Shown one piece after another: positions 11,141 to 61,201 of a stretch of 64,000 bases of DNA; the stretch's first letter is position 1; every line of letters starts with the position of its first letter. The translations under genes were made by a program, and so were the position numbers. Under the pieces are notes generated by a model. The model had not been told where the DNA came from. It ran no database searches and saw nothing but the letters and a program-made list of their open reading frames with translations. Origin of the DNA: Thermoanaerobaculum sp. (GTDB taxonomy: Bacteria; Acidobacteriota; Thermoanaerobaculia; Multivoradales; UBA5704). The DNA lies in contig JAJKHS010000091.1 in NCBI GenBank assembly GCA_021154885.1, positions 9,089 to 73,088 on the forward strand, in the 5' to 3' direction.

Positions 11141-11240
11141 GAATGCCGGTCCCCTCTCAGGTCACCGCGGCACGTCCTCTGCCGCAGAGCGGCATGACTA
11201 TATCCGAGGTCGATGAAACCCGGGGCCGGCAGATCGAATC

Positions 11241-11385
11241 AGGCGAAGCAGGGACTTCAGGGACAACAGGGACGACAGGGACTTCAGGGACACGAAGAAG
11301 ACCAGAGAGCAGAGCTTTTCTCGTCCCTGATGTCCCTGAAGTCCCTGTCGTCCCTGACTTCGGCTTTCTGCCGCGCAGGCTCCTC
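11241..11385. repeat. Family-1 palindromic MITE/REP-like element, copy A
   Basis: Arm of five 9-bp units CAGGGACNN, a spacer, then the inverse arm GTCCCTGNN; 3-prime terminus TTTCTGCCGCGCAGGCTCCT shared with copies at 34598 and 44663. Confidence 0.7.
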
Positions 11386-11574
11386 GCCCGCGCACCCTGC
11401 CACCCATAGAAGACGGAAAAGGAGGCCCGATCTTGCAACCGCCCGCCAGGCAAGGATTTGCGAGGGGGGTTTCGGCTCATCTTAGAGGCGACTGAATTGA
11501 GAGCGGCGGCTCGCCAATCCTGCCCCGGCACACCCTGTTCTGTAGACCCAGTCCCGTCTCAGGAGAGAGAAGAC

Positions 11575-15830: not shown

Positions 15831-16085
15831 ATGACGCACATCATCATGGAACCTTGTGTCGGCGTGAAGGATACGGCCTGCGTCGACGTCTGCCCCGTCG
15901 ATTGCATCTACGGCAAGAACGAGGACTGGGAGATGCTCTACATCCATCCCGAGGAGTGCATCGACTGCGGCCTGTGCGTCGACGCCTGTCCCGTCGAAGC
16001 CATCCTCCCCCTGGAAGAGGTGCCGGACAAGTGGAAGGCGTTCATCGCCAAGAACTACGAGCACTTCGGTTTCACCCCGCCGTGA
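15831..16085 (+). CDS. Ferredoxin (2x Cys-cluster, 7Fe/8Fe type)
   Basis: CVGVKDTACVDVCPVDCIY and CIDCGLCVDACPVEAI cluster motifs. Confidence 0.8.
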   Translation: MTHIIMEPCVGVKDTACVDVCPVDCIYGKNEDWEMLYIHPEECIDCGLCVDACPVEAILPLEEVPDKWKAFIAKNYEHFGFTPP

Positions 16086-16149: not shown

Positions 16150-16365
16150 CCCGCCCCGAAGCCCTCACCCCTGTCCCCTCTCCCGCCCCTCCCACCCCCC
16201 TCACCGGGAGAGGGGAACCCGGTTGAAGCGGTCTTGCTGGTCTCCCCCTGTCCGTGTTTGTCCGTGCTTGTCCCTTCCGTCCTTGTTCTTTCTCCCTCTT
16301 CTCCCGGTGAGGGGGGTGGGAGGGAGCGGGAGAAGAGGGCCGGGGTGATGAGGGTCTTGGGGGAA
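16150..16365. repeat. Family-2 palindromic G/C-tract repeat element, copy 1
   Basis: CCCTCACCGGGAGAGGGG ... CCCTCTTCTCCCGGTGAGGGGGGTGGGAGGGAGCGGGAGAAGAGGGCCGGGGTGATGAGGGTCT; same core found at 32527, 35905 and 38018 in both orientations. Confidence 0.7.
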
Positions 16366-21709: not shown

Positions 21710-24700
21710 GTGACGGTGAGCGTCCGGGACCCTGCGGGATTTCTGGTGACCGAGGTCGACGCCCTCACTGGACGTATCGAGCCAGAGGTCGTCCGCTTCG
21801 TCGCGGAAGCCCCCGGGATCTACAACATCGCGGTCCGTGCCCTGGAGAGTTTCCCCGGGGCACCACAGCCGAGTCTGGAGATCGACGAGATCCGTCGTGC
21901 GACCTTCCAGGATCGCTGGGTGGCAGCGGAGGAAGCGTCCCTGGCGCGGCTCGACAAGGGCTTCTCCGACCAGGACCCGGACGCTCTGCAGGCGGCGCTC
22001 CCAGCCTACCAAGGAGCTCTGGAGCGGGCTCGCCGGCTTGGAGACCTCCCCCGGCAAGCGGGGCTGGTCTACCGTCTCGGCGTGACTCACAACCGCCGGG
22101 GAGAGGTCGCGGCGGCACGGGACGACTTTGCGGCGGCCCTCGATCTTTACCGCCGGGCCGGCAATCCCAAAGGGATCGCAGCCACCCTCAATCAGCTCGG
22201 ACGCGTGGAGCGGCGCCTGGGAGACGTCGCGGCGGCGGTCCGGGATCTTACAGAGTCGCTGCGCCTGTGGCAGGGCCTGGGTGCGGAAGGCGAAGCGGCC
22301 GACGTCGGCAACAACCTGGGGTTTCTCGAGCAGTCGACGGGACGCTACGACGAAGCTCTGGAGGCCTATGACCGAGCCCTGCAGATCTACCGCAAGCGGC
22401 AGAACCTCGCGCGCCAGGCTTCCGTTCTGAACAATATCGGGGGCATCTATGACGGCCGCGGCGAGCCGGAGCAGTCTCTCCTCTACTACCGGGAGGCCCT
22501 GCCCCTCAGCCGGTCGCTGAAGAACCGGAGCCTGGAATCCGAGTTGCTGAACAACTTCGGCGCCGCCTACGTCCGCCAGGGGAAGCTCCAGGAGGCGCTT
22601 GACTCTTATGTCTCTGCGCTCGAGCTGATGCGCAGCCTCAAAGCCGAGAACCGGGAATCCCAGGTACTGACCAACCTGGCGGACCTGTTCATCCGGCTCG
22701 GTTCCCCCGAAAAGGCCCGGGAGCTTTTCGCCCGGGCGCTGGCTCTCCAGAAAAAGAGCCCCGACCGCCAGAGCGAAGCCGCGATCCTCGGCAACCTCGG
22801 CAGGGTCTCGACGCTCCTTGGCCAGTTCGCCGAAGCAGAGGACTTTCTCAATCAGGCCCTGGAGCTGGCGATCCGCACCGGGGATCGGTCGAGCCAGACC
22901 CTGACCCTGGTGCAGAAGGCTGAGCTCCTCGGCGCCCTGTCGCGACCGGACGAGGCGCGGGTCTCTCTGCATCAAGGCTTGAGCCTCGCCCGCCAGCTCG
23001 GCGATCACGCCGCGGAGCTCGTGGCCCTCGGCGCCCTGGGCCGCTTCGAGGCAGCCCGCGGCGAAACCGAGCCGGCGCGCCGGGACCTGGAGGCGGCGCG
23101 GCGGCTGGCCCAGGAGCTGGGCATCGTCGGGGAAGAGGCGAAGGCGCATCAGGAGCTGGCGCGGCTGGAACGGTCCCAGGGGCACCTGGACGCCGCCCGC
23201 GGTCATGTCGAGACGGCGCTAGCGCGTTTCGAGTCGCTGCGCTCGGACGTCGCGGGGGATCAGTCGCGGACCTCCCTCTTCGCCACCCAGCGCGAAGCCT
23301 ATGACCTCGACGTGGACATTCTCGAACAGCTCCATCTCGATACCCAGGCCTTCGAGGCCGCCGAGCGGGCACGGGCGCGCGGTCTGCTCGACTTCCTCGG
23401 CCAGGCGCAAGTGGACGTGCGGGAGGGCGATCCCCAACTCCTCGCCGAGGAGGGTCGTCTGCGCGCGGAGATCAACGCCAAAGCCGCCCTCCGTGCCGAG
23501 CTGCTGCGCAAATCGGACGGCGCCGCGCAGGCAGGGGCCCTCACACGGGAGCTGACGGCCCTCTCCGCCGAGCACCAGATCGCCGAGGCCCGCCTGCAGG
23601 CGCGCAGCGCCCGCTATGCCCGGCTCACCCAACCCGACACGCGGCTCTCCGAGCTCCAGGCCACGCTCGACGGGAACACCGTCGTCCTCGAATACTTCCT
23701 CGGCGAGCCCCACAGCTACCTCTGGAAAGTCTCCGCGAGCTCCTTCGCCAGCTTCGAGCTTCCCGGCCGGGAACGGATCGAGTCGCTGGCGCGGCGCGTC
23801 CACGAGCAGCTCGGCAGTCTCGGCACCCGAGAGGGTGCGCGAAATCGACAGGACCTCGAAGAGCTCAGCAGGACCCTCCTAGGGCCGGTGCTCGATGGGC
23901 TGCAGAGCGAGCGCCTGGCCATCGTGGCGGACGGCGCTCTCCTCTACGTCCCGTTCGCGGCCCTGCTTATCCCGGCCGAGGATGCCGCGCGCACCCAGGT
24001 GCCCTTGGTGGTCGCTCACGAGGTGGTCCATCTCCCATCGGCGGCCGTGCTGCGGGAGATCCGCCGCGCCCGGCAGGAGAAGCCCCGGCCGGCGGGAGCG
24101 GTGGCCGTCCTGGCGGACCCGGTATTCGGGAAGGACGATCCCCGGGCGCATCAGGCGATGGCCAAGACCCCACCGGCCCACCCCACGGGAGAAGGCCTGG
24201 CGGACCTCCTCGGCCCTCTCCGGCAGTCCCAAGCCGGCGATGGGTACTCCCGCCTGACCTGGAGCGGCCGTGAAGCCGAGCTCGTGGCCGCCGCGGCCCG
24301 GGGGAGGGATGTCCTCATCGCGCGAGGCTTCCAGGCCAGCCGGGAGCTCGCCATCTCGCCGGACCTCGGCCGGTTCCGCATCCTCCACTTCGCCACTCAT
24401 GGCTTTCTGGATGCCCAGCACCCGGAGCTCTCCGGCCTGGTCTTCTCGCAGCTCGATCCCCAGGGCCGCTCCCGCGACGGCTTCCTGCGCCTCCAGGACG
24501 TCTACCATCTCCATCTCAACGCCGACCTCGTCGTCCTCTCCGGCTGCGAGACGGCGCTGGGCAAGAATCTCCGCGGCGAGGGTATCGTGGGGCTCACCCA
24601 CGGCTTCTTCCACGCCGGCGCCTCCCAGGTCCTGGCGAGCCTCTGGCCGGTGCGCGACCGGGCCACGGCCGAGCTGATGCAGCGCTTCTACCACGGCCTG

Positions 24701-24877
24701 TTCCACGATGGCCTCCCCGCCTCCGCCGCTCTGCGCCAGGCCCAGATCTCCCTGTGGAAAGAGCGGACCTGGCGCGATCCCTACTTCTGGGCCGCCTTCA
24801 TCCTCCAGGGCGACTGGCAGGCCGGAGAGCGATGGACGAAAGCTCAGGGCGCGATGTCGAAACCGGTGCCCCCCTGA
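21710..24877 (+). CDS. TPR-repeat protein with C-terminal CHAT (caspase-like) domain
   Basis: Many TPR units (AGNPKGIAATLNQLGRVERRLGD, YDEALEAYDRALQIYRK ...) then CHAT with His HFATHGF and Cys LSGCETALG dyad. GTG start; upstream in-frame signal-peptide-like segment ILFVLPLTLAGGAQ without a clear start codon. Confidence 0.7.
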   Translation: MTVSVRDPAGFLVTEVDALTGRIEPEVVRFVAEAPGIYNIAVRALESFPGAPQPSLEIDEIRRATFQDRWVAAEEASLARLDKGFSDQDPDALQAALPAYQGALERARRLGDLPRQAGLVYRLGVTHNRRGEVAAARDDFAAALDLYRRAGNPKGIAATLNQLGRVERRLGDVAAAVRDLTESLRLWQGLGAEGEAADVGNNLGFLEQSTGRYDEALEAYDRALQIYRKRQNLARQASVLNNIGGIYDGRGEPEQSLLYYREALPLSRSLKNRSLESELLNNFGAAYVRQGKLQEALDSYVSALELMRSLKAENRESQVLTNLADLFIRLGSPEKARELFARALALQKKSPDRQSEAAILGNLGRVSTLLGQFAEAEDFLNQALELAIRTGDRSSQTLTLVQKAELLGALSRPDEARVSLHQGLSLARQLGDHAAELVALGALGRFEAARGETEPARRDLEAARRLAQELGIVGEEAKAHQELARLERSQGHLDAARGHVETALARFESLRSDVAGDQSRTSLFATQREAYDLDVDILEQLHLDTQAFEAAERARARGLLDFLGQAQVDVREGDPQLLAEEGRLRAEINAKAALRAELLRKSDGAAQAGALTRELTALSAEHQIAEARLQARSARYARLTQPDTRLSELQATLDGNTVVLEYFLGEPHSYLWKVSASSFASFELPGRERIESLARRVHEQLGSLGTREGARNRQDLEELSRTLLGPVLDGLQSERLAIVADGALLYVPFAALLIPAEDAARTQVPLVVAHEVVHLPSAAVLREIRRARQEKPRPAGAVAVLADPVFGKDDPRAHQAMAKTPPAHPTGEGLADLLGPLRQSQAGDGYSRLTWSGREAELVAAAARGRDVLIARGFQASRELAISPDLGRFRILHFATHGFLDAQHPELSGLVFSQLDPQGRSRDGFLRLQDVYHLHLNADLVVLSGCETALGKNLRGEGIVGLTHGFFHAGASQVLASLWPVRDRATAELMQRFYHGLFHDGLPASAALRQAQISLWKERTWRDPYFWAAFILQGDWQAGERWTKAQGAMSKPVPP

Positions 24878-25143
24878 GGGAGCGTGCGATTGAACTGGCG
24901 CTTCACCCCCCGATACGTGATGGTCACGTTGTAAGAGCCGGCGGGAAGATCCTGCAGGTAGTACGAGCCATCGTCAGCGGTGACGGCCCGCTGCTTGCTG
25001 GACCCGGAGCTGAAATCGATCAGGGCGTGGGGGACCGGAGCTCTGTTCCCCTGGAACAACACCTTCCCACTGATGGGTGCCGCCACGACATGGGCTGCCG
25101 CAAAGATCAACAGGGCAACGGCCAAGGCGAATATGCGTTTCAT
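24844..25143 (-). CDS. Small secreted protein with carboxypeptidase-regulatory-like beta-sandwich motif
   Basis: Signal peptide MKRIFALAVALLIFAAAHVVAAP; TADDGSYYLQDLPAGSYNVTI resembles CarboxypepD_reg/Cna-B folds. Confidence 0.5.
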   Translation of the reverse strand: MKRIFALAVALLIFAAAHVVAAPISGKVLFQGNRAPVPHALIDFSSGSSKQRAVTADDGSYYLQDLPAGSYNVTITYRGVKRQFNRTLPQGGTGFDIAP

Positions 25144-25168
25144 GATGGGTCTCCTAGATCGTCCATTG

Positions 25169-25687
25169 TCAAGGGCTCGCCGGCGCCACCTGTAACTGCT
25201 GGCTCCTGCGGATACCGGTTTTGGTGTCTGTAACCCGTAGCTCATAGACTCCCGCCGGGATGGGTCGGTAGTAAGCGAACCGGTTGCCTTCCGGCATGAG
25301 AGTGAAGACCGCGTCTCGCGGGATCAGCTCGAGACTCAGACTCTGGCTGCCGAAATCGACCCCCGGAACGTTCTGCACGTCGATGACGCGGGATCCCAGT
25401 GGGCCGGGATGAAGCTTGTCCGGGGCGGTCGTGACCAGTAACAGCTCCTTCGCTTCGCTGTAGGTCTTGGCAGGATTGACGAAGAAGAACACGAGCAGCG
25501 TGAAACCCCAGATGGCGCTCGCGCCCCCCAATTTCACCGCCATGCTGCTCATACCCGGAGCCTGACCGCTCAACTGGGACGCCCCCTTGTTCCAGAAGAG
25601 CATGGCCGCCAGGAAAGCCGCAATCGTAGCGAACACCCACCACCCCGCACAGAACAAGAGGAGATGGTCGAGATTTGAGTCCGGCAT
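25169..25687 (-). CDS. Hypothetical membrane-anchored protein
   Basis: Two predicted TM segments (LLLFCAGWWVFATIAAFLAAMLF; IWGFTLLVFFFV) then soluble domain; upstream in the same operon as 24844..25143. Confidence 0.5.
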   Translation of the reverse strand: MPDSNLDHLLLFCAGWWVFATIAAFLAAMLFWNKGASQLSGQAPGMSSMAVKLGGASAIWGFTLLVFFFVNPAKTYSEAKELLLVTTAPDKLHPGPLGSRVIDVQNVPGVDFGSQSLSLELIPRDAVFTLMPEGNRFAYYRPIPAGVYELRVTDTKTGIRRSQQLQVAPASP

Positions 25688-25835
25688 CTTGTACCTACCT
25701 TTCCATGGAGCTTCCAGCAGGGAAGCTCAGCAAGGTAGGCGCCCGGCTTCTCTGTTTGTTACAGCGTTGCTAAGAGATATGACGTCGAGCAGCTTGGGGA
25801 GCAACTCTTCTCCGTCCCGGTGCTACGATGCACCC

Positions 25836-26306
25836 ATGGAGCCGCTCGACAAGGACATCGTCCGAGCCACAGAGAGCGTTCCCGGGATCTCCGTCCTGGT
25901 GCTCTTCGGCTCCCGGGCGCGAGGGACCCATCGACCGGACAGCGACCTCGACGTGGCGGTCTTGCCGCAGAGCCCGGATTCCCGAGCCCGCCGGCATCTC
26001 CAAACGGACGTTGCCGTGGCCCTCGCCGATCTGGCTCCCGAGGGCCGAGTCGACGTCGTCCTCCTCGACGAGGCCGACGCCGTGCTGCGGCAGCGGATCA
26101 TGGAGACCGGCCGGGTCCTGCTCAACCGGGACGACGAAACCTGGAAAGAGCTGCGGGTCCGTACCATGCGGGAATACGGTGACGGGGAGTGGGCGCGACG
26201 GCTCTACCGCGAAGCCCAGCGCCGACGACTGGAACGAGGTGAGCCAAGTGGTCGATCGGGAAAAGCTCTCGAGTCGCTTAGACGCGTTGGAAAGCTACCT
26301 CGCTGA
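25836..26306 (+). CDS. Nucleotidyltransferase (MNT-type antitoxin-like)
   Basis: GSRARGTHRPDSDLDVAVL minimal nucleotidyltransferase motif (GS-x9-DxD). Confidence 0.65.
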   Translation: MEPLDKDIVRATESVPGISVLVLFGSRARGTHRPDSDLDVAVLPQSPDSRARRHLQTDVAVALADLAPEGRVDVVLLDEADAVLRQRIMETGRVLLNRDDETWKELRVRTMREYGDGEWARRLYREAQRRRLERGEPSGRSGKALESLRRVGKLPR

Positions 26307-26349
26307 GCTGCGGACCTTCCGCGGCACCACCCGCGGGCACCAAACCTGA
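26248..26349 (+). pseudogene. HepT (DUF86) toxin N-terminal remnant, truncated after about 33 codons
   Basis: GTG start overlapping MNT 3-prime end; VVDREKLSSRLDALESYLAELRTFRGTT resembles the HepT N-terminus; premature stop at 26349, no Rx4HxY motif. Confidence 0.4.
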
Positions 26350-26519
26350 CCCTGCAGTCCTCCAAGCCGGCCGATATTTCCCGCGTCTACGCGGAGAGCG
26401 CCCTCTCTGCTTCCCAGGCTGCCCCAGAGCCATCTCCCTCGTCACCTCTAAACACTGAAGGCGACGTCTGTGTCTTCACCACATGGACACGGCGAGAGAA
26501 CGAATCCAACCAGGACACC

Positions 26520-28106
26520 ATGCACGAACGAATCCAGACCTTCGAAGAGCTCGCCCTCCGACTGCGGCCCGACGGGGCCGGCGCCTACGTCGTCCAGGTC
26601 GTCCATTCGCCCTACGGCTGCCGCGACGTCCGATTCGATCTCAAGGATCTCGGATTTCCCTTCGACAGCCTTCGTCGGATCGACTTCTCAGCTTCGGAGT
26701 CCCGTGAGTTGGGAGAGGTCGAGCCTCCTCAGGGCGGGGGCTCGGCGACTCCGGAGACTCTGGGTGGAACGCTGTTTCGGGCTCTCTTCCGGGACGATCT
26801 CCTCTCGACCTTCCTGATGAGCCTGGGCCGTATCCAAGGAAGAAAGGACCTCGGTCTGCGAATCCGGCTGATCTTCGATCCTCTCGATCCCGCCAGCCGG
26901 CAGCTTCTCTCCCTTCCCTGGGAGCTTCTCTACCGCCCCGATACCCGAGATTTCCTGGCGAGGAGCCGGTTCACGCCCGTGGTCCGTTATCTGGAGGTTC
27001 CCCGGCTGACCACCCCGCTGGAGCTGACATCCCAACTGCGTATCCTCGTCGTCCTAGCAAACCCAGCAGGAACGGCGGGCCTCGATCTCGAACGAGAATG
27101 CCAGCAGATGGAGAGCGTTCTCCGAGAGAATCCCCGCATTCGTCTGGAGGTCCTCAGGAGCCCATCGCTCCCCGAAATTCGTTCGGCCCTTCAGAGATTC
27201 GAAGCTCACGTCTTCCACTACATGGGCCACGGCGGCTTCGACTCAAAGTCAGGGGAAGGCTCTCTGCTCTTCGAGGATTCGCAGCGCAGGCCGCAGCCGG
27301 TCGGAGCCGGCGTGCTGGCCGAGGCTCTCAAGAACCTGCCGAGCCTGCGGCTCGTCTTTCTCAACGCCTGCCGCACGGCCCAGGTTTCCGAAGATCCGAA
27401 ATTGGACCCCTTCAGCGGCTCGGCATCGGCCCTCTCTCTGGCGGGTGTACCGGCGATCCTTGCCATGCAACTTCCGATTTCAGACCGCGCCGCTCTGATG
27501 TTCAGCCAGCGGCTCTACGAAATGCTGGCCCAGGCTTTTCCAGTGGATGCCGCGGTCGCGGAGGCGCGGCTGGCCGTCCATCTCGATGCTCCGTCGTCGT
27601 ACGAATGGGCCACGCCGGCCCTTTACATGAGCGTGCCTGACGGTTGCCTCTTTGCTCCGGCTCCCCCCGGCGATGAAGAGGACCATTTCGCCCTCGGTTT
27701 GAGCTATCTGGACCAGGGCCTCTACGACCTCTCGGCTGCCGCCTTTCAGCGCGTTCTGGGCAAAACGACTCACGAGGAGGATCTTCTCTACTACCTCGCG
27801 CTCGCACTCATCGGGGGACAGCGACCAAGGGCCTTGAAGCTCGCCACCATCCGGCAAATCGAGACTTATCTGGCAGCCGCCATCCGCCTGAATGATCGGA
27901 AGTCTCACTACAAGCTCCTTCTCGCAGCGGCCAAGTACGACTACTATGCGAGCAACGGGCTTCGCATCCCTTCACCCCCAGTCGATCAACTCCTGAAAGA
28001 AGCTGCAAATGGAGAGATCGACCCGAAGGAAGTGCGCCTCATGCTTCGACATGCTCCCCTTCCCCCGGGAGACCTCCTCAGCGTCGTCCAGAATTTTTGC
28101 CATTGA
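26520..28106 (+). CDS. CHAT domain protein with C-terminal TPR-like region
   Basis: His HVFHYMGHGGF and Cys VFLNACRTA dyad region typical of CHAT; C-terminal LGLSYLDQGLYDLSAAAFQRVL TPR-like. Confidence 0.65.
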   Translation: MHERIQTFEELALRLRPDGAGAYVVQVVHSPYGCRDVRFDLKDLGFPFDSLRRIDFSASESRELGEVEPPQGGGSATPETLGGTLFRALFRDDLLSTFLMSLGRIQGRKDLGLRIRLIFDPLDPASRQLLSLPWELLYRPDTRDFLARSRFTPVVRYLEVPRLTTPLELTSQLRILVVLANPAGTAGLDLERECQQMESVLRENPRIRLEVLRSPSLPEIRSALQRFEAHVFHYMGHGGFDSKSGEGSLLFEDSQRRPQPVGAGVLAEALKNLPSLRLVFLNACRTAQVSEDPKLDPFSGSASALSLAGVPAILAMQLPISDRAALMFSQRLYEMLAQAFPVDAAVAEARLAVHLDAPSSYEWATPALYMSVPDGCLFAPAPPGDEEDHFALGLSYLDQGLYDLSAAAFQRVLGKTTHEEDLLYYLALALIGGQRPRALKLATIRQIETYLAAAIRLNDRKSHYKLLLAAAKYDYYASNGLRIPSPPVDQLLKEAANGEIDPKEVRLMLRHAPLPPGDLLSVVQNFCH

Positions 28107-32526: not shown

Positions 32527-32712
32527 GCCCCCACCCAAGACCCTCATCACCCCGGCCCTCTTCTCCCGCTCCCTCCCACCCCCCTCACCGGGAGAAGAGG
32601 GAGACCAGCAAGAGCGCTTCAACCGGGTTCCCCTCTCCCGGTGAGGGGGTTGGGAGGGGGCGGGAGAGGGGACAGGGGGGGACAGGGGTGAGGGCTTCGG
32701 GGCGGGGGCGTT
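32527..32712. repeat. Family-2 palindromic repeat element, copy 2 (inverted relative to copy 1)
   Basis: CCCTCTTCTCCCGCTCCCTCCCACCCCCCTCACCGGGAGAAGAGGGAGACCAGCAAGAGCGCTTCAACCGGGTTCCCCTCTCCCGGTGAGGGGG. Confidence 0.7.
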
Positions 32713-34592: not shown

Positions 34593-34597
34593 CTCTC

Positions 34598-34762
34598 TAG
34601 GAGCCTGCGAGGAAGAAACAAGAAGCAAGGACGTAAAGGACATCAGGGACGACAAGGACCTCAAGGACACGAAGGAGATGCAAATCTGGTATTTTATTGT
34701 CCCTGCGGTCCTTGCGGTCCTTGATATCCCTGCTTCGGCTTTTCTGCCGCGCAGACTCCTGC
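34598..34762. repeat. Family-1 palindromic MITE/REP-like element, copy B
   Basis: TAGGAGCCTGCGAGGAAGAAA ... GGAC 9-mers ... GTCCCTGCGGTCCTTGCGGTCCTTG ... TTTTCTGCCGCGCAGACTCCTGC. Confidence 0.65.
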
Positions 34763-38017: not shown

Positions 38018-38188
38018 CCCCGAAGCCCTCACCCCCTGCCCCCTCTCCCGCCCCCTCCCAACCCCCCTCACCGGGAGAGGGGGTCCCGGCTGAGGCGTTC
38101 CTGCCTTTCTCCCTCTTCTCCCGGGGAGGGGGGTGTGAGGGGGCGGGAGAAGAGGGCCGGGGTGATGAGGGTCTCTCACTTCGCCCCC
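38018..38188. repeat. Family-2 palindromic repeat element, copy 4
   Basis: CCCGAAGCCCTCACCCCCTGCCCCCTCTCCCGCCCCCTCCCAACCCCCCTCACCGGGAGAGGGGG ... CCCTCTTCTCCCGGGGAGGGGGGTGTGAGGGGGCGGGAGAAGAGGGCCGGGGTGATGAGGGTCT. Confidence 0.7.
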
Positions 38189-44662: not shown

Positions 44663-44850
44663 CCTAGGAGGGTGCGCGGCAGAAACTCGAAGACAGGGAC
44701 AGCAGGGACACCAGAGACAGCAGGGACGAAAAATCTCGGGTCTTGACTAAGTTTTCACGTCCCTGTTGTCCCTGAAGTCCCTACTGTCCCTGCTGTCCTG
44801 CACCAACGCTGCCTACGAGCTTCTCTGCCGCGCAGGCTCCTAGGAGGGTG
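44663..44850. repeat. Family-1 palindromic MITE/REP-like element, copy C
   Basis: TIRs CCTAGGAGGGTGCGCGGCAGAAA / TTCTCTGCCGCGCAGGCTCCTAGG; arms of 9-bp units ACAGGGACA / GTCCCTGNN. Confidence 0.7.
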
Positions 44851-50067: not shown

Positions 50068-51380
50068 CTGGATCGACTGGAACGGGCCGGCGCTGGGCTG
50101 TGGTCGGCGGCGGCATCCTGGGGATGACGCTCGCCCATCGCCTCGCCCGGGCCGGGCACGACGTCACCCTGTTCGAGGCGGCGGAGCAGCTCGGCGGCCT
50201 CGCCGCGGCCTGGAGCCTGAACGGCGTGGTGTGGGACCGCCATTACCACGTCACCCTGCTGTCGGACTCCCACCTGCGCGCGCTGTGGGCCGAGCTCGGC
50301 CTCGCGGACGAGCTGCGCTGGGCTGAGACGCGCACCGGCTTCTACTCCGGCGGCCAGTTCCACTCGATGTCGAACGCCCTGGAGTTCCTCCGCTTTCCTC
50401 CCCTGCGCCTGGTGGACAAGGCGCGGCTCGCGGCGACGATCCTCCACGCCTCGCGTATCCGCGACCCCTTGCCGCTGGAGGCGGTGACGGTGAGCGACTG
50501 GCTGCGGCGCTGGTCGGGCGAGCGGACGTTCCAGACGATCTGGCTGCCGCTGCTCGAAGCCAAGCTCGGGCGGCACTGGCAGCGGACCTCCGCCGCCTTC
50601 CTCTGGGCCACCATCGCCCGCCTGTACGCCGCCCGCCGGACGGGCCTCAAGAAGGAGATGTTTGGCTACGTCGCCGGCGGCTACGCCCGCGTCCTCGGCC
50701 GCTTCGCCGCGGTGCTGGCGGAGGAAGGAGTGGCGATCCGGGCCGGCCACGCCGCGGCGCGGATCGCTCCGGACTCCAACGGGATACGGGTCGAGTTTCG
50801 CAACGGCCACGGCGAGACCTTCGATCGCGTCGTGGCGACTGTGCCCGCGCCGGTGGCGGCGGATCTCTGCCAGGGGCTCACGGCCGAGGAGACGGCGCGG
50901 CTGCGGGGCGTGCAGTACCTTGGCATTATCTGCGCCTCCCTCCTCCTGCGCCGGCCGCTGGCCGGGTTCTACGTCACCAACGTCACCGATCCGGGTTATC
51001 CCTTCACGGCGGTGGTCGAGACGTCCACCCTGGTCGACCGCGCGCAATTCGGGGGACACGCCCTGGTCTACCTGCCGAAGTACGTGGATCCGGAGGACCC
51101 AGCCTTCGCCCTCTCGGACGGCGAGATCCGGGAGGCCTTCCTCGCCGGCCTGGAGCGGATGGTCCCCGGCTTCGATGGTGGCGACGTCCTCGCCTTCCGC
51201 GTCTCGCGCGTCCGCCACGTCTTCGCCCTGCCGACGCTCCACTACTCGCGGACGCTGCCGCCGATGACCACCTCCATCCCCGGGCTCCATCTCGTCAACG
51301 CGGCCCACATCGTCCACGGCACGCTGAACGTCGACGAGACGATCCAGCTCGCGAACCGGGCGGCGGCGGCGCTGCGTTGA
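50049..51380 (+). CDS. FAD/NAD(P)-binding amine-oxidase-like oxidoreductase
   Basis: WAVVGGGILGMTLAHRLARAGHDVTLFEAAEQLGGLAA dinucleotide-binding motif. Confidence 0.65.
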   Translation, partial: GMAPGLTGSTGTGRRWAVVGGGILGMTLAHRLARAGHDVTLFEAAEQLGGLAAAWSLNGVVWDRHYHVTLLSDSHLRALWAELGLADELRWAETRTGFYSGGQFHSMSNALEFLRFPPLRLVDKARLAATILHASRIRDPLPLEAVTVSDWLRRWSGERTFQTIWLPLLEAKLGRHWQRTSAAFLWATIARLYAARRTGLKKEMFGYVAGGYARVLGRFAAVLAEEGVAIRAGHAAARIAPDSNGIRVEFRNGHGETFDRVVATVPAPVAADLCQGLTAEETARLRGVQYLGIICASLLLRRPLAGFYVTNVTDPGYPFTAVVETSTLVDRAQFGGHALVYLPKYVDPEDPAFALSDGEIREAFLAGLERMVPGFDGGDVLAFRVSRVRHVFALPTLHYSRTLPPMTTSIPGLHLVNAAHIVHGTLNVDETIQLANRAAAALR

Positions 51381-53020
51381 AAAAGAAACCTTTTCTTCTG
51401 CTCGCTGGCGCGCTCCTCGCGATCGTGATCGCGCAAGGTTTGGCCTGGCAATCCGGCGAGCCGTTCTACAACAACGACGAGACCCGCCACGTGATGACGG
51501 GGGTGTTCGTCCACGATCTCCTCGTCGACCATCCTTTCTCACGCCTCAGGGACTACACCGTCGACTATTACCTCCAGTATCCGGCGCTCGGCCTGATCGT
51601 CTGGCCCCCTCTGTTCTACGGTTTTGAAGGGGTCCTCATGCTCGTCCTCGGCACCTCGTTCGCGGTGACGAAGGCCCTCGCCGGCCTCTTCTCCGCCCTC
51701 GCCTGCGTCTACCTCTTCCTGCTCGTCCGCCGCACCCATGGCGAGGTCGCCGCCGCGGTGGTGACGCTGCTCTTCGGCCTGTCGCCGCTGGTCTTCCTGC
51801 TGAGCCACCACGTGATGCTGGAGATGCCCGCCCTGGCCTTCGCGCTGGCGGCGATTTATCACTTCGTCCGCTATCTCGACGATCTCGACGGCGGGAAGCG
51901 CCTGGACGTCTTCATCGCCGCGGCCGCCGCGGCCGGCTTTGCCCTGACGCGCTACGACGCCTTCGTCCTCGTCCTCTTCTTCCTCCTCTCGCTGCTCGCC
52001 CTGCGGCGCTTCGACGTGCTGCGCCGGCGCGAGGTCTGGCTGGCGGCGCTGCTCGCCCTGGCGATCGTGCTGCCCGTCTACGTGCCGATGCTGGCCCAGT
52101 TCGGCCGCACCCACGTCCTGGTGACGGTCGAGGGCGGAGCCCATCCGGCCCCGGGCCTCGGCCTCTTCGGCGCCCTCGCCTTCTATCCCCGCGCCCTCCC
52201 CGGACAGATCGGGTGGCTCACCCTCGTGCCGGCGCTCGCCGGCCTCCTCTCGGCGCTGCGGCCGGCGCGGCGCCAAGCCTGCTGGCCCTACCTCACGCTG
52301 GCGGCGGCCACCTGGCTCGCCTTCACCCCGCTGGCGGAGCGCATGCCGCGCCACACGATCTACTGGGTCCCCGCCTTCGCCCTGTTTGCCTGGGAAGGGA
52401 TCGACTGGATCGCGAGCCGGCTGAAGCTGCCGCAGGGGCGGGCGGTCCTCGCCTCGATCGTCGCCTCGATCGTCATCGGCGGCGCCTTCTGGCTGGCCGC
52501 GACGAGCCGCATGCTCTACGTCCGGGGCTACGAGGAGGCGGCGCGCTACGTGGTGGCCAACACCCGGGCCTCGCGCTACTCCTTCGTCGACGGCTTCCTC
52601 AACGGCGACTTCATCTATCAGGTCCGCCGCCACGACCCCCGCCGCCGCCTCTGGGTGCTGAGGGGGGACAAGCTCCTCTATGGCGTAATCAACGATCCCA
52701 GCGGCGGCTACGAAGAATTCGCGGGTGGCGAGAACCAGATCCTCGCCGCCCTGTTCCGCTACGACCCGGAGTACCTGGTGGTCGAAGAGCCGCAGGTGCT
52801 CTTCAAGATACCCATGGCGGAGCGGCTGCGCCAGACCCTCGCCGAGCATCCCGAGCGCTTCGAGCGGGTGAAGAGCCTTCCAATCGAGAGCAACGTCCCC
52901 GCCTTCCGCGGGGTGCGGCTGGACGTCTACCGCAGCCGGCTCCGCAACCCGAGCCCTGAGCGCCGGCTCTCTCTGGACATGATGGGCCTCGGGCGGTCGC
53001 TGGGGACGGAGGTGCGGTAG
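51377..53020 (+). CDS. GT-C fold membrane glycosyltransferase (family 39 / ArnT-PMT-like)
   Basis: More than 10 predicted TM helices, N-terminal DE-containing loop FYNNDETRHVMTGVF; TTG start. Confidence 0.6.
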   Translation: MKKKPFLLLAGALLAIVIAQGLAWQSGEPFYNNDETRHVMTGVFVHDLLVDHPFSRLRDYTVDYYLQYPALGLIVWPPLFYGFEGVLMLVLGTSFAVTKALAGLFSALACVYLFLLVRRTHGEVAAAVVTLLFGLSPLVFLLSHHVMLEMPALAFALAAIYHFVRYLDDLDGGKRLDVFIAAAAAAGFALTRYDAFVLVLFFLLSLLALRRFDVLRRREVWLAALLALAIVLPVYVPMLAQFGRTHVLVTVEGGAHPAPGLGLFGALAFYPRALPGQIGWLTLVPALAGLLSALRPARRQACWPYLTLAAATWLAFTPLAERMPRHTIYWVPAFALFAWEGIDWIASRLKLPQGRAVLASIVASIVIGGAFWLAATSRMLYVRGYEEAARYVVANTRASRYSFVDGFLNGDFIYQVRRHDPRRRLWVLRGDKLLYGVINDPSGGYEEFAGGENQILAALFRYDPEYLVVEEPQVLFKIPMAERLRQTLAEHPERFERVKSLPIESNVPAFRGVRLDVYRSRLRNPSPERRLSLDMMGLGRSLGTEVR

Positions 53021-53059
53021 GAGATGCGCGCAAGCGTCGCAACCACCAAGCCACGAGAC

Positions 53060-53435
53060 GCCAATACCACGACACAAGCCGCACATACCAGGACAGCAGC
53101 CGCGAATACCAGCACATCAATCTCTCCGATTCCGACGTCAGCCGCAAATACCGAGATGGCAGCCGCAACTACCGAACTGTGAGACACCGACGCCACGGCA
53201 GCCTCACTCGCTCCACTTTCCTGAGCCGCAACTGTCCGAGCAGGAGCCGCGACTGTCTTCCTGTTTGCTGCAAATATTCGAGCAGCGCCCTCCGCTGCCG
53301 TGCCAGCGGTCACCGCGGCTCAGGCAGTTGCGGCAGCTTTCATGGAGTGGAGCGTCGCCTGGCAGGTAAGTTGCGGCACACGAACCGGCAAAGATCTCCG
53401 CTTGGGTTGCAAGCTGCGGCTGCTGGCTGGTAAGT
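53060..53435. repeat. 21-bp phased AGCCGC(A)A(T/C)ACC direct-repeat array followed by phased inverted AGTTGCGGC copies
   Basis: AGCCGC at 53067, 53088, 53130, 53151, 53214 and 53235 with degenerate units between them, all on a 21-bp phase. Inverted AGTTGCGGC or AGCTGCGGC at 53316, 53359, 53402 and 53423, also at 21/43-bp spacing. Confidence 0.6.
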
Positions 53436-53498
53436 TGCGGCTCCTGTCTTGAAGCTTGCAACCGACGCCGTCGGAGAGACGGCTCGTCTGCAGGAAGC

Positions 53499-54455
53499 TC
53501 AGCCGGCGGCACGCTCCGCCAGCTCGCCGCTCTCCAGTCTCGCGGCGTGCTCTCCCAGGGGTATCACCTCGAACCCCCGGCAGAGGGCGGCGAGGTGCTC
53601 GCTCACCCGCGCGAGCTTCCAGGCGCCGGGCCGGCGCATGGCGGGAAAGAAGGCGAGCGCCTCCGTGTCGTCGCCGCCCAGGAAGTCGAGCGGGTGGAGG
53701 AGGATCGACGGCTGCACTGCGGTCAGACGGCAGAGCCGCAGGGCCGTGTTGAAGTAGAGCCTTCCCAGCGACGGCGAGACAAGGTCCAGATAGAGCACGT
53801 AGCTGAGGTGGATCGGCGTGCGCAGGAGCGGCATCGTGGTGACCGGGATCTCGAGCAACCGCCGCTCCCCCACCCGCCAGCGGTAGGGCCGGATGGGCCG
53901 CAGTCCCTCGCCGAAGGTGCCGAAAAGGGCGCTGCGCTGTCGCCGCTGCTCCGCCGTGAGCCCGGCCGTCCGGAAGTAGTAGGCCCGCGCCAGCGGTCCC
54001 AGGAAGGTCGGCAGAGTGCTCGCGTCGTAGCGGTATCCCCGCCGCGCGAGCACGGCGAGCGTCGCCGGAGACAGGCTGAACCCCGGGCCGCGAAACCCCG
54101 CCGGCCGCTGCCCCGTGGCCTGCACGATCGCCTCCTCCGCCCGTGCCAGCTCCTCCTCCAGCTCCGCCTCGGAGTACAGGTGGAGCCACGACTCATGCCG
54201 GAACGAGTGGTTGCCGATCTCGTGCCCCGCCGCCGCGATCGACGCCAGGGCTGCGCGGTTTTCCTCCCGGGCCGCGTCCTGCCCCACGACGAAGAAGGTG
54301 ATCCGCAGCCGCCGCTCGGCCAGGAAAGCCAGGATGCGCGGCACCGCCACGTCCAGGTAGGAAGGGAACGCCTCCCACCCGGCGTCGCCATGGATCTTGA
54401 GATAGGACCAGAGGTTGTCGAGGTCCAGGGAGAGGCTGGCGAGGGGTGGCGTCAT
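53499..54455 (-). CDS. Polysaccharide deacetylase family protein
   Basis: NodB-homology-like region RITFFVVGQDAAREENRAALASIAAAGHEIGNHSFRHESW. Confidence 0.7.
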   Translation of the reverse strand: MTPPLASLSLDLDNLWSYLKIHGDAGWEAFPSYLDVAVPRILAFLAERRLRITFFVVGQDAAREENRAALASIAAAGHEIGNHSFRHESWLHLYSEAELEEELARAEEAIVQATGQRPAGFRGPGFSLSPATLAVLARRGYRYDASTLPTFLGPLARAYYFRTAGLTAEQRRQRSALFGTFGEGLRPIRPYRWRVGERRLLEIPVTTMPLLRTPIHLSYVLYLDLVSPSLGRLYFNTALRLCRLTAVQPSILLHPLDFLGGDDTEALAFFPAMRRPGAWKLARVSEHLAALCRGFEVIPLGEHAARLESGELAERAAG

Positions 54456-54500
54456 GGCGGACGAAAGTGTAGCTTCAGACGGTGCTACGATCGACCACCC

Positions 54501-56198
54501 ATGCCCCGTCTGCGCCTTGCCCTCGCGAGCGGCGATGACCGCGAGGCCATCTACCGGCTGCGCCACGCCGTCTACGCCGCCGAGTTGGGGCAGCACTCGA
54601 CCAACCCGGAGGGGCGGCTGCGCGACGGCCTCGACGATTGCAACGAGTACGTCGTCGCCACCGAGGGCGGCGAGCTCGCCGGCTTCGTCAGCCTCACGCC
54701 CCCCGGCGGGGCCAGCTACTCCATCGACAAGTATTTCGCCCGGGAGGACGTCCCCGTCGCCTTCGACGACGGGCTCTGGGAAGTGCGTCTGCTGACCGTC
54801 CCGCCAGGGCGCCGCGGCCGCGCCCTGGCCTTCCTTCTCATGTACGCCGCCTTCCGTCGTGTCGAGTCCCGGGGCGGCGCCCGGATCGTCGCCATCGGGC
54901 GCCGCGAGCTGCTCGGCTTCTACCGCAAGGCCGGCCTGCGGCCCCTCGGACCGCGGGCGCAGGCCGGGCGGGTGACCTACGAGCTGATGACCGCCACCCT
55001 CGCCGGCCTGCGGACGGCCGCGGTCCGCTTCGAGCCGCTGCTCCACAGGCTCCGCCGCACCCTGGACTGGGAGCTGGACGTCCCCTTCCAGGAGGAGGCC
55101 TGCTTCCACGGCGGCGCCTTCTTCACCGCGATCGGCGAGACGTTCGAGACGCTGGAGCGCCGGGACCACGTGGTCAACGCCGACGTGCTCGACGCCTGGT
55201 TCCCCCCGGCCCCGGGCGCCCTGCGCACCCTCGCCGACCACCTCCCCTGGCTCCTCCGGACGTCGCCGCCCACGGACGGGCGGGGCCTCATCCAGGTCAT
55301 CGCCGAGGTCCGCGGCGTGCCAGCCGGCTCCCTGGCCCTCGGCGCCGGCTCGTCGAGCCTCATCTTCCTGGCCTTCCGCCAATGGCTGACGCCCGCCTCG
55401 CGCGTCCTCCTGCCGGACCCGACATATGGCGAGTACGCCCACGTCCTCGAACGGGTCGTCGGCTGCCGCACGGATCGTCTCCGCCTGGCGCGCGCCGGCG
55501 GCTATCGCCTCGATCCGGAGGAGCTGCTGTCGCGCCTGCGACGGCGGCGCTACGACCTCGTGGTGCTGGTGAACCCCAACAATCCGACGGGCCAGCTCCT
55601 GCCGCAAGCCGGCGTCGCCTCGCTGCTGGCCGCCGTGCCCGCTCACACCCGCGTCTGGATCGACGAGGCGTACATCGACTACGCGGGGAGCGAGGAGTCC
55701 GTCGAGCGCCTCGCCGCGGCGAGCGGCAATGTGGTCGTCTGCAAGTCGCTGTCGAAGGTGTACTCCCTGAGCGGCGCCCGGGCGGCCTATCTCTGCGGTC
55801 CGCCCGCCCTGGCGCGGGAGCTGCGGTCGCTCACCCCTCCCTGGGCGGTGAGCCTGCCGGCGCAGGTGGCGGCGGTGGCCGCCCTGCGGGACCCGGCCTA
55901 TTACGCCGGGCGCTACCGGCAGACGGCGGAGCTCCGGCAGGATCTGGTCGCGAGCCTGCGGGAAGTCCTGCCCGGAGCGGAGATCCTGGCGGGAGTGGCG
56001 AACTACGTCCTCTGTCTCCTCCCCCGGCGAGGACCGGACGCGGCGACGGTGTGCGAACGCTGCCGCGGCCGTGGTGTCTTCCTGCGCGACAGCGGGGCGA
56101 CCAGCGCCGTCCTCGGCCGCCATGCCCTGCGGGTGGCGGTCAAGGACGAAGTCACCAACCGGCGCGTCGTGGAGACGCTGGCCTGGGCCTGGGCGTGA
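54501..56198 (+). CDS. Fusion: GNAT N-acetyltransferase domain plus class I/II PLP aminotransferase (HisC/CobD-like)
   Basis: N-terminal 170 aa GNAT-like (RRGRALAFLLMYAAF); C-terminal LVVLVNPNNPTGQLL and SLSKVYSLSGARAAYL (PLP-lysine region). Confidence 0.65.
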   Translation: MPRLRLALASGDDREAIYRLRHAVYAAELGQHSTNPEGRLRDGLDDCNEYVVATEGGELAGFVSLTPPGGASYSIDKYFAREDVPVAFDDGLWEVRLLTVPPGRRGRALAFLLMYAAFRRVESRGGARIVAIGRRELLGFYRKAGLRPLGPRAQAGRVTYELMTATLAGLRTAAVRFEPLLHRLRRTLDWELDVPFQEEACFHGGAFFTAIGETFETLERRDHVVNADVLDAWFPPAPGALRTLADHLPWLLRTSPPTDGRGLIQVIAEVRGVPAGSLALGAGSSSLIFLAFRQWLTPASRVLLPDPTYGEYAHVLERVVGCRTDRLRLARAGGYRLDPEELLSRLRRRRYDLVVLVNPNNPTGQLLPQAGVASLLAAVPAHTRVWIDEAYIDYAGSEESVERLAAASGNVVVCKSLSKVYSLSGARAAYLCGPPALARELRSLTPPWAVSLPAQVAAVAALRDPAYYAGRYRQTAELRQDLVASLREVLPGAEILAGVANYVLCLLPRRGPDAATVCERCRGRGVFLRDSGATSAVLGRHALRVAVKDEVTNRRVVETLAWAWA

Positions 56199-57597: not shown

Positions 57598-58698
57598 ATG
57601 CTCCCGACCGCCGCCGCTGCCGCGATGCCCTGGGACCGCCGCGCCCCGGAGCGGGAAGGCCCGCCCTCCGCCTGGTCCTTGCTGCCCGAGGACCTCGCGG
57701 CCCGCGGCTGCCCCGGCCGGCCGGAGCACGTGTTCGCCCGGCTTCAGCGCGTCCGCACCTGGCAGCCGGACCGCCTCTTCGTCGCGCGGGAGATCCGCGC
57801 CTGGCTCGCGGATCACACCGATCAGTCCTTGCCGGCGATCCTCGAACGCCACCCCTCGTACGACGGCTCCACCAAGCTGGTGCTCGGGCTGGCGGACGGC
57901 CAGCGGATCGAGGCCGTCCACATGCCCCGCCACGAGGCGGACCATCGCGTCACCTACTGCGTGTCGAGCCAGGTGGGGTGCGCCCTGGGTTGCACCTTCT
58001 GCGCCACGGGGGCCATGGGGATCGTGCGCAACCTGACGGCGGGCGAGATCGTAGGGCAGGTCCTGGCGCTGATGCGCGACCTCGGGCCGCGGTGCGGCGA
58101 GTCGGTCCACCTCGTCTTCATGGGCATGGGCGAGCCGCTCCACAACCTCGACCACGTGCACCGGGCGGTGACCGTCCTCTGCCATCCGGAGGGCGCCGGC
58201 CTCTCGCCCTGGCGCATCACGGTGAGCACCGCGGGCCTGGTCTCCGGCATCGAGCGGCTGGCGCGGATGGTGCCGCGGCCGCAGCTCGCCGTCTCGGTCA
58301 ACGCCACCACCGACGCGGCGCGCTCGGCCACCATGCCGGTCAACCGGGCCTGGAACCTCGCCCGTCTGCGCCAGGCGCTCGACGCCTGGGAGCTCAAGCG
58401 CCACGAGCGCTTCATCTTCGAGTACGTGCTCCTCGCCGGAGTCAACGACACGCTGGAAGATGCGGACCGCCTGGCGGATTGGCTGGGGGACCTGCGCCAT
58501 CGCCACAACGTCAATTTGATCCCGATGAACGAGCACCCCCACTCCCCCTTCCGCGGTCCCGGCGAGCAGCGCCTCCAGGCCTTCGCCGCCCGCCTCCACC
58601 AGCACGGCTGCTTCATCACCGTGCGCCGCAGCCGCAGCCGCGACGTGCAGGGAGCGTGCGGACAGTTGGTGAAACAGCGGGAGGCGGCGGTCGGGTAG
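57598..58698 (+). CDS. rlmN: RlmN/Cfr-family radical SAM RNA methyltransferase
   Basis: CALGCTFC (Cx3Cx2C) and GMGEPLHN, VSTAGLV motifs; size matches RlmN. Confidence 0.75.
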   Translation: MLPTAAAAAMPWDRRAPEREGPPSAWSLLPEDLAARGCPGRPEHVFARLQRVRTWQPDRLFVAREIRAWLADHTDQSLPAILERHPSYDGSTKLVLGLADGQRIEAVHMPRHEADHRVTYCVSSQVGCALGCTFCATGAMGIVRNLTAGEIVGQVLALMRDLGPRCGESVHLVFMGMGEPLHNLDHVHRAVTVLCHPEGAGLSPWRITVSTAGLVSGIERLARMVPRPQLAVSVNATTDAARSATMPVNRAWNLARLRQALDAWELKRHERFIFEYVLLAGVNDTLEDADRLADWLGDLRHRHNVNLIPMNEHPHSPFRGPGEQRLQAFAARLHQHGCFITVRRSRSRDVQGACGQLVKQREAAVG

Positions 58699-58699
58699 A

Positions 58700-59300
58700 T
58701 ATCGTCGGGTCACCTCTGCCGATTTCGTCGGGTCACCTCTGCCGGAGGGGTTCCTTTCAGGCCCGAAGGGCCGGCGGCATGTAGCCTGGGGCTGGCGCTT
58801 TTTGCCAGCCCCAGGAAACGCAACCCATACAAACCCAAAGCCCTGAAAGGGCGACGGCAGCTCATCATTTGAAGCAAACTGCCGCCGCCCCTCCGGGGCT
58901 TGGGGGTAATTTGGGGCTCTGTTCCTGGGGCTTGCGCCCCAGGCTACATGCCGCCGGCCCTTCGGGCCTGATGACTCATGAGACACCCTCTGAGTCTCAT
59001 GCCTCAATCCCCCGAAGGGTCCCGCCCTCTTTGTGACCTTCTTTCGAAGGAGGGAATGTTCCATGCGTAGCAAGGTCTCAATCCCCCGAAGGGTCTCCAC
59101 GAGAGTGAAGTCCATCAGTTGTCAAAGACCAGGTTCAATTCCACCGCATCCGGCGGTCGGGTTCTACCCACGTCCAACAGGAGCTCGGCTCCGGTGCGGG
59201 CGGAGTCGTCCTTCACGACCGAGGACGGACCCGCTGGCGCCAGTCCCGATCTGCGCCTGTGCTAGACTGCTTCTCAGCCTAAATCCCTAACCTGGGTCCT
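58700..59300. repeat. Structured non-coding spacer: tandem 20-mer, 35-bp perfect inverted repeats flanking 145 bp, repeated CTCAATCCCCCGAAGGGTC boxes
   Basis: TCGTCGGGTCACCTCTGCCG at 58703 and 58726; CAGGCCCGAAGGGCCGGCGGCATGTAGCCTGGGGC at 58759 and its exact reverse complement at 58935; box at 59003 and 59076. Confidence 0.6.
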
Positions 59301-60999: not shown

Positions 61000-61054
61000 G
61001 GGGTGTTTGGAAATGGTGTCAGTCCCGGGAAGAGGCGGTTCGGCGGAGGTCGTA

Positions 61055-61128
61055 GGGGCGCAATTCATTGCGCCCGCAGGGTCGGCGTCACCTCAGGGCG
61101 CAATGAATTGCGCCCCTACGACGCACGC
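61055..61128. terminator. Bidirectional hairpin between convergent genes
   Basis: TCGTAGGGGCGCAATTCATTGCGCCC ... GGGCGCAATGAATTGCGCCCCTACGA: 24-bp perfect inverted repeat, each arm itself near-palindromic. Confidence 0.45.
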
Positions 61129-61201
61129 GGAGCGTTTCGGATGGTGGACAGGCTGAAGCCGCAGATTTTCCAGACACCCAGTTAGGCACCAGCCAGGCCC
61201 A

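Follow-up and report, generated by a model that had tools for sequence, protein, structure and literature searches.

A 478-bp lineage-specific insertion of phased 21-bp repeats between two convergent genes of Thermoanaerobaculum sp., possibly the relic of a foldback-type mobile element

What is a highly ordered array of short repeats doing between the 3' ends of two convergent genes? The question is raised by positions 53021 to 53498 of the 64,000-nucleotide stretch of Thermoanaerobaculum sp. DNA analysed here (the whole of which we call the window), where 478 bp separate the stop codons of genes for an ArnT-like glycosyltransferase and a polysaccharide deacetylase, with no gene called inside. 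The original prediction, made from the letters of the DNA, saw there a set of direct units on a strict 21-bp phase followed by inverted ones, and likened them to plasmid iterons or another cooperative protein-binding array, perhaps with origin activity; an extended imperfect hairpin in RNA or single-stranded DNA was offered as the alternative. The convergent-gene gap was recognised correctly, and its length of 478 bp is confirmed by independent gene calls in the metagenome-assembled genome (MAG) GCA_019509815.1 (contig JAEKLO010000018.1). We find that the 21-bp ordered pattern is real, that the region is not an origin or iteron array, and that the 478 bp are a lineage-specific non-coding insertion. 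The explanation towards which we lean is a foldback-type insertion, since decayed, which is probably what is left of a non-autonomous mobile element that entered where two stop codons overlapped at TTAG.

The left arm of the array (53035-53307, plus strand) consists of 13 slots on an exact 21-bp phase, with the consensus AGCCGCAACTACCAGGACAGC. The best units, those with an exact AGCCGC, start at 53077, 53098, 53140, 53161, 53224 and 53245 (spacings 21, 42, 21, 63 and 21) and fill six of the 13 slots, counting the phase from 53035; four more are degenerate but recognisable (53035, CGTCGC; 53056, AGACGC; 53182, AGACAC; 53266, TGCTGC), and those at 53119, 53203 and 53287 are beyond recognition. 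With 10 of the 13 slots recognisable, the earlier count of about nine units was a fair one. The AGCCGC motif and its spacings had also been seen correctly, although every position quoted for the motif array was 10 bp too low. The right arm (53315-53442, minus strand) holds about six inverted units of 21-22 bp, which read (A/T)GCCGCAACT(T)ACC on the minus strand; on the plus strand the inverted core AGTTGCGGC is found at 53326, 53369 and 53433, with AGCTGCGGC in its place at 53412. The spacings of these four cores (43, 43 and 21) correspond to units of 21-22 bp with the phase slipping by +1 twice, so the right arm is off the strict 21-bp phase and does not share that of the left arm, as had been supposed. 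The alignment of the two arms is centred near 53300, within a GC-rich symmetry centre (53287-53320) where a small inverted repeat, CCGCTG...CAGCGG, and a CCGCGG palindrome can be read. The 21-bp unit AGCCGCAACTACCAGGACAGC is not self-complementary.

Autocorrelation, compared with dinucleotide shuffles, reaches z=8.1 at a lag of 21 and z=7.8 at a lag of 42, with high values also at 63, 84 and 105, against a 95th percentile of the shuffle maximum of 3.5, and Tandem Repeats Finder (TRF) reports a period of 21 in both the left and the right arm. The original prediction had allowed that the periodicity might not rise above expectation; it is significant against the shuffles. The 13-mer AGCCGCAAMTACC, with up to two mismatches, occurs eight times in the window, where 1.6 occurrences are expected, and all eight lie within the array. 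When lag-21 excess was measured in 280-bp segments over the whole 64 kb, the array region came joint first, and the others of the top six all lay inside long open reading frames (ORFs), in the TPR/CHAT, ClpB and deacetylase/glycosyltransferase genes. The sequence of the array is the same in the MAG and in four independent read-set assemblies, five in all and all from one study or population; since these independent assemblies are identical here, the array is not an assembly artefact, and among them the units show no variation in copy number. Within the unit, conservation is 0.53 in core columns 1-13 and 0.34 in the spacer columns, a marginal difference (p=0.05, or 0.13 with the window length left free).

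The decisive evidence is the empty orthologous sites in relatives, the closest of which are uncultured Acidobacteriota / Thermoanaerobaculia. Orthologous loci, which we cite by L numbers, were gathered by a scan of one genome per species together with protein look-ups. In the closest relatives (L006, L078 and L079, with 74-77% identity in the PMT_2 protein, as we call the glycosyltransferase after its Pfam family), the PMT_2 gene and the deacetylase gene run into each other, their stop codons overlapping at TTAG or TTAA in the reading ...GTGCCTTAGCC... or ...TTAACC.... The more distant syntenic relatives L007, L009, L011, L083 and L085 have a gap of 0-75 bp, and in no syntenic relative examined was the array found at the orthologous site, the gap being 0-75 bp or synteny being broken. 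In a neighbour-joining tree of the PMT_2 proteins, lineages with abutting genes are both sister to the window's lineage and basal, so the ancestral state is one with no spacer and the whole 478 bp were gained in this lineage. As regards conservation in related strains, then, the array is the unique and decayed sequence that the original prediction had set against its own reading.

Both genes of the window still stop at the ancestral codon: the PMT_2 protein ends in ...GTEVR* here and in ...GTEVP* in the relatives, and the deacetylase in ...G* in both. Retention of both stops would imply that at least 4 bp, the shared TTAG, were duplicated on insertion, and a decayed TTAG duplication is what we infer, this being exactly what target-site duplication would give. 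The insert has no similarity to either flank, and its derivation from the flanking genes was rejected for lack of significant similarity.

The second feature of the element that bears on its nature is its symmetry. The left-arm segment 53121-53287 (plus strand) is inverted and collinear with 53313-53479 (local alignment score 47, against 22.8 +/- 3.5 for shuffles); these inverted arms are internal to the insertion, and a further ~100 bp of array (53021-53120) lies outside the palindrome on the left, with an alternative pairing to the outermost right-arm units (inverted pair I1). Local stems, found as inverted pairs I1, I7, I17 and I24 and in the minimum-free-energy folds, join 53209-53241 to 53318-53354 and 53068-53103 to 53416-53451. 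The predicted folding energy is -198 kcal/mol for plus-strand RNA (z=-3.1) and -232 kcal/mol for minus-strand RNA (z=-4.3), and single-stranded DNA gives z=-4.4; in none of the three folds was any shuffle as stable as the native sequence. The stems are imperfect, at ~57-75% complementary. With collinear inverted arms and folds that beat all shuffles, the extended imperfect hairpin, formerly the second choice, is supported computationally. The folds also contain a short GC-rich stem-loop at 53464-53488 (GACGCCGTC GGAGA GACGGCTCGTC), just past the deacetylase stop codon and without a U-tract.

The course of events that we favour builds on the observed repeat geometry, insertion status and hairpin potential and on the lack of origin, coding or known-RNA features. 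The element, now much decayed, would have consisted of arrayed 21-bp units and then of these units inverted. It would have come in as a mobile element of a non-autonomous or foldback kind (or as the relic of such an element), at the TTAG shared by the two stop codons. At least 4 bp of target would have been duplicated at insertion, as in transposition, leaving both genes with their ancestral stops. Its present-day effect would be passive: a transcript that reads through from one gene or the other would form a long imperfect hairpin. This hairpin would keep apart two transcription units that once overlapped, and it could be a barrier to 3' exonucleases or make RNA polymerase stall. What we propose, as distinct from what is observed, is the mobile origin, the duplicated target and the effect on transcript ends. 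As in miniature inverted-repeat transposable elements (MITEs), the insert is small and non-coding (478 bp, with no Pfam match or gene call inside), and the sites in relatives are empty.

Several observations weigh against this proposal. The exact insertion borders carry no terminal inverted repeat (TIR), the first and last 40 nt sharing only GCGTCG at unequal offsets. The presumed copies of the target duplication now read GTAG and TCAG, with two of four bases identical. Searches of the window, of plasmid and phage collections and, with a strict two-unit pattern, of JGI metagenomes and viral contigs brought up no second copy. Thirteen slots in exact 21-bp phase, with no indel among them, show more order than simple neutral decay would be expected to leave, and the keeping of that phase even through unrecognisable slots argues for some constraint. 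Finally, the resemblance of its ends to those of the CAGGGAC hairpin elements, which are described below, is weak and at most suggestive: a border-anchored alignment of TAG/GAGATGCGCGCAAG with CTAG/GAGGGTGCGCGGCAGAA gives p of about 0.02 for the left end, and a shift of 2 nt is needed for the right end to score.

The search for copies deserves a few details. The strict two-unit pattern matched 58 loci in the JGI metagenomes and two in viral contigs, none of them similar to the element by blastn. Inspection of loci with multiple matches showed 21-bp repeats of an unrelated kind, most of them GC-rich tandem repeats of Gly-rich look, and one array (L030) that is probably non-coding. Occurrence of the array elsewhere, as in a plasmid, had been thought worth looking for from the start, and it is not borne out: the motif is found nowhere else in the 64 kb, and blastn against plasmid and phage collections gave no match to the element.

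A serious alternative, though on balance an unlikely one, is that the array is a local minisatellite: a short seed between the genes would have been expanded by slippage, part of it duplicated in inverted orientation and the whole left to neutral decay, neither a mobile element nor a function being involved. TRF does find a single unit repeated head to tail, with period 21 in both arms, and the uniqueness of the element in all searched data, the absence of TIRs at its borders and a core conservation only marginally above that of the spacer (p 0.05-0.13) all suit this explanation. It is harder to reconcile with an ancestral state in which there was no intergenic DNA at all to seed an array, with an insert lacking similarity to either flank, and with two stops at their ancestral positions, for which the overlap has to be duplicated; the inverted arm requires an extra rearrangement, and the copy number is constant in five assemblies, though these are from one population.

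Also in favour of a local origin is the finding of independent arrays, with other units, at the same junction, so that arrays can evidently arise there. In L080 and L081 (72% PMT_2 identity), at least 14 well-kept copies of a 21-bp unit, CGTACCTCGGGGGGAGAGGCT, directly follow the orthologous PMT_2 stop (L081:11613-11846 and 16004-16061, the former being L080:4113-4346), and in L010 the stop is followed by 3.7 copies of a 42-bp unit (L010:6209-6365). These units are unrelated to that of our element, and on the tree there are three independent gains of 21- or 42-bp arrays among the ~22 orthologous sites examined. The 3' end of this cluster may be a permissive site. The array of L080/L081 is split by a 4.2-kb insertion sequence (IS) of the IS1-like type, with 26-bp TIRs (GGTAGTGGTGCTGTAGTGTGTTGCCG) and an 8-bp duplication, TCGGGGGG; the idea that such an array is itself a transposon end, by analogy with L080, was rejected, the IS1-like element having inserted into a pre-existing 21-bp array. 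In L010 there is also a small ORF after the PMT_2 orthologue (L010:5700-5860, minus strand; MKKKLPPPTLKKEPPRLALSRETIQRLDEPTLTVVIAGLVDSSQVCCPNTT), which resembles a precursor of a ribosomally synthesized and post-translationally modified peptide, with a leader and a Cys-rich core.

The foldback-type insertion that we prefer has company in its own genome. TRF and an inverted-repeat scan show at least seven other palindromic intergenic elements in the same 64 kb. Three of these, of 150-190 bp, are the CAGGGAC hairpin elements (11215-11386, 34597-34762 and 44664-44843), in which a left arm of four to five (CAGGGACNN) units is matched by a right arm of four to five (NNGTCCCTG) units, with a 9-bp period. 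Their 7-nt cores hardly vary, whereas the 2-nt spacer changes from almost every unit to the next; the borders carry inverted termini, GAGSSTGCGCGGCAGAAA in form, with CTAG at both ends of copy B and at the left end of copy C, and the RNA folds have z of about -6.4 to -7.0. Rfam has no family for them, and ~130 kb of loci from relatives contained no copy. They have the appearance of a MITE-like family not described before, one that an IS5-type transposase may mobilise. Because the CAGGGAC elements share arms of this kind, direct tandem units followed by inverted ones are a recurring design in this genome, which suggests that the 478-bp element is a longer, older-looking example of the design with a 21-bp unit. 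Actual membership in the CAGGGAC family was rejected: the bodies have no similarity, with local alignments not above shuffles, and a hidden Markov model of the termini recovers all five of its training termini and not the ends of the element, even at E=1000.

The other palindromic elements are of diverse kinds. A second family, with arms of 25-56 nt around CCCTCCCACCCCCCTCACCGGGAGA / TCTCCCGGTGAGGGGGGTGGGAGGG, is present in three copies (16187-16324, 32540-32689 and 38029-38165). An inverted pair of Rfam Acido-Lenti-1 RNA motifs (58759-58815, minus strand, and 58924-58969, plus strand) includes a 36-nt perfect inverted repeat (58757-58792 with 58936-58971) and is preceded by a 23-bp tandem duplication (58698-58744). 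At 61040-61131, in the convergent gap between a second PMT_2 gene and a DUF4337 gene, lies a hairpin with 41-nt arms, 85% complementary, and a 10-nt loop, which is a candidate bidirectional terminator.

A bolder proposal, to which we give little credence, would make the 478-bp element a bacterial "foldback" transposon in the full sense: non-autonomous, with ends made of many helically phased 21-bp sites for a putative transposase, in the manner of the FB or CACTA elements or of an exaggerated Tn7 or Mu end, and one of a larger, as yet undescribed class of Thermoanaerobaculia hairpin elements whose arms are tandem repeats. If so, the CAGGGAC elements with their 9-bp period would be younger, active-looking members of that class. 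The three independent gains of 21- or 42-bp arrays at the 3' end of the ArnT-like gene might likewise reflect a site-directed process.

It seems to us improbable that the region is a structured RNA kept by selection, whether a long hairpin in the 3' untranslated regions acting as bidirectional terminator or insulator, or an independent non-coding RNA. Both strands do fold significantly better than shuffles, the minus strand best, and the 41-bp-arm hairpin in the window's other convergent gap (61040-61131) suggests that this genome makes use of hairpins where the 3' ends of genes converge. The relatives, however, do with overlapping stop codons and no hairpin, and the stems of the element, at ~57-75% complementary, are far poorer than those of the window's other hairpin elements with their z of about -6.4 to -7.0. 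Nor are there the usual marks of such an RNA. Rfam 15 gave nothing for the element at the gathering threshold, with only chance-level matches at E up to 10; no sigma-70 promoter consensus was found at the element; and a scan of 52500-54000 for intrinsic terminators found none, hairpins being present without the T-runs that would supply a U-tract.

Equally low in our estimation is a cooperative protein-binding array, in which a protein would sit on 13-bp cores (the candidate binding sites AGCCGCAAnTACC / AGCCGCAAATACC) at intervals of two helical turns, in direct orientation in one arm and inverted in the other, as subterminal sites of a transposase, as an array for a regulator or enhancer-binding protein, or as centromere-like sites. 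The geometry is what one would wish for: the phase is exactly 21.0 bp over 13 slots, even across the unrecognisable ones, and core columns 1-13 are more conserved than the spacer (0.53 against 0.34), though this difference is not significant once the choice of window is allowed for. An array of the same geometry, apparently an operator, is found in the relative L080 (6337-6420) near a ribbon-helix-helix (RHH) gene. Against these points, the 64 kb encode neither a candidate binding protein nor a Rep, Par, transposase or enhancer-binding protein, the motif is missing from the rest of the window, and a location at two 3' ends, lacking in relatives, leaves no possibility of conserved regulation; nor is there an AT-rich region, a DnaA box or a change in skew.

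One variant of this protein array would have the right-arm units R4 and R1 serve as sigma-54 promoters for an antisense transcript, with the left arm as upstream activator sites. R4 (53360-53375, TGGCAGGTAAGTTGCG) and R1 (53424-53439, TGGCTGGTAAGTTGCG) have the -24/-12 spacing of sigma-54 promoters and point antisense into the deacetylase gene; the sequences at 53360 and 53424 fit the GG-N10-GC spacing, and 53360-53375 agrees with the consensus TGGCAC-N5-TTGC at 10 of 12 specified bases with the right spacing. Such matches occur in the window at chance frequency, however (8 found, 7.9 expected), which makes sigma-54 promoters in the right-arm units unlikely. In the L080 array, AATTCTTCCCCA is repeated three times directly on a 21-bp phase and once inverted (L080:6337-6420), within the cargo of the IS1-like element and ~330 bp downstream of an Arc/CopG-type RHH gene (5815-6003). 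It is a clean case of a probable protein-binding array with the geometry that the original prediction had in mind.

The origin or iteron reading itself falls on every feature tested other than geometry. Tandem repeats in helical phase, within the 17-22 bp typical of iterons, are certainly present, with 13 slots at exactly 21 bp, and to that extent the original prediction stands. Among the ORFs of the 64 kb scanned against Pfam, however, there is no Rep, Par, integrase, transposase or sigma-54 activator; no DnaA-box-like 9-mer lies within 10 kb of the array; there is no AT-rich element, the minimum GC of any 40 bp across 52900-53600 being 50%; and the cumulative GC skew has no inflection at the array.

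Coding was tested explicitly because 21 bp is seven codons: one frame stays open over more than 130 codons, the consensus unit reading AGC CGC AAC TAC CAG GAC AGC with G or C at each third position, but a coding repeat was rejected, since the open frame has no start codon before 53179, no gene is called there in five assemblies, the internal ORFs have no Pfam match, the differences between units are not concentrated at third positions, and phmmer against 1.84 billion representative proteins gave only a spurious low-complexity match, to what we take from its sequence to be a eukaryotic-retroelement-like, tandem-duplicated protein.

The surroundings of the element are those of a chromosomal gene cluster, of an Arn-pathway-like (glycolipid) kind. 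The upstream flank is the gene for the ArnT-like GT39/PMT_2 glycosyltransferase of 547 aa (51377-53020, plus strand; Pfam PMT_2, 1.5e-12), a called gene whose protein has an exact match in GCA_019509815.1; the downstream flank, convergent with it, is the called gene for the polysaccharide deacetylase of 318 aa (53499-54455, minus strand; Pfam Polysacc_deac_1, 1.5e-20). Beside these two the cluster includes genes for a deacetylase-GT2 fusion, a DegT aminotransferase, a GFO/IDH oxidoreductase, a hexapeptide acyltransferase and an amine oxidase. Over the 2.7 kb from 53499 to 56198, ORFs of more than 870 aa occupy both strands, a shadow-ORF artefact of high GC; the real genes beneath them, by Pfam, are the minus-strand deacetylase gene (53499-54455) and a plus-strand GNAT/FeeM-aminotransferase fusion at ~54.5-56.2 kb. 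Elsewhere in the window, 21710-28103 encodes two CHAT-domain proteins, one with TPR repeats, and a Polbeta-type nucleotidyltransferase in a stretch of lower GC (56-64% at 25-29 kb), which may be a defence or foreign island.

Taken alone, the element matters little, being single, decayed and lineage-specific, with no sign of an origin, regulatory or coding function. It would be a mistake to annotate the region as an iteron array or origin, and the element is useful as a worked example of how two-helical-turn phasing with inverted copies is not enough to call iterons. Of wider interest is the density of palindromic intergenic elements in this Acidobacteriota genome: the 64 kb contain at least eight, several with hairpin arms made of tandem units, a design that is well known from eukaryotic foldback elements and, to our knowledge, hardly described in bacteria. 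If they are mobile, the hairpin elements of the window would offer a tractable system for learning how tandem subterminal repeats arise and come to be recognised.

The element can be compared with known systems. The iterons of origins such as those of pSC101, P1, F and RK2 are direct repeats of ~20 bp about two helical turns apart, with inverted copies nearby, and the array is like them in just these respects. It differs from an iteron origin in lacking an initiator gene, an AT-rich unwinding element, a DnaA box and a plasmid context; its units are much more degenerate than those of working iterons, and it lies between two 3' ends in a chromosomal sugar-modification cluster, from which it is missing in relatives. 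With minisatellites and variable-number tandem repeats (MIRU, for example) it shares head-to-tail repeats of a 10-100-bp unit and an intergenic position in a gene cluster, but half of the array is inverted, there is no copy-number variation in the five assemblies, and the units are strongly diverged.

The bacterial MITEs and the REP/BIME, ERIC, BOX and Correia sequences resemble it as small, non-coding, intergenic insertions with hairpin potential; unlike REP/BIME, its unit is not itself palindromic and the motif is confined to this locus. The CAGGGAC elements share its arms of tandem units, direct and then inverted, but have no demonstrable homology to it, their period being 9 bp and not 21, and it is much longer and more decayed than they are. 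Inverted arms of short tandem or phased repeats are also found in the foldback (FB) transposons of Drosophila, in the En/Spm-CACTA elements and at the ends of Tn7 and Mu, all of which are multicopy, with defined termini, target duplications and a cognate transposase. Our element is known from a single decayed copy and has neither clear termini nor a transposase, but like these it has inverted arms of phased units and stands as an insertion against empty sites. By analogy, then, its architecture appears closest to that of foldback transposons, of transposon ends with subterminal arrays and of bacterial MITEs.

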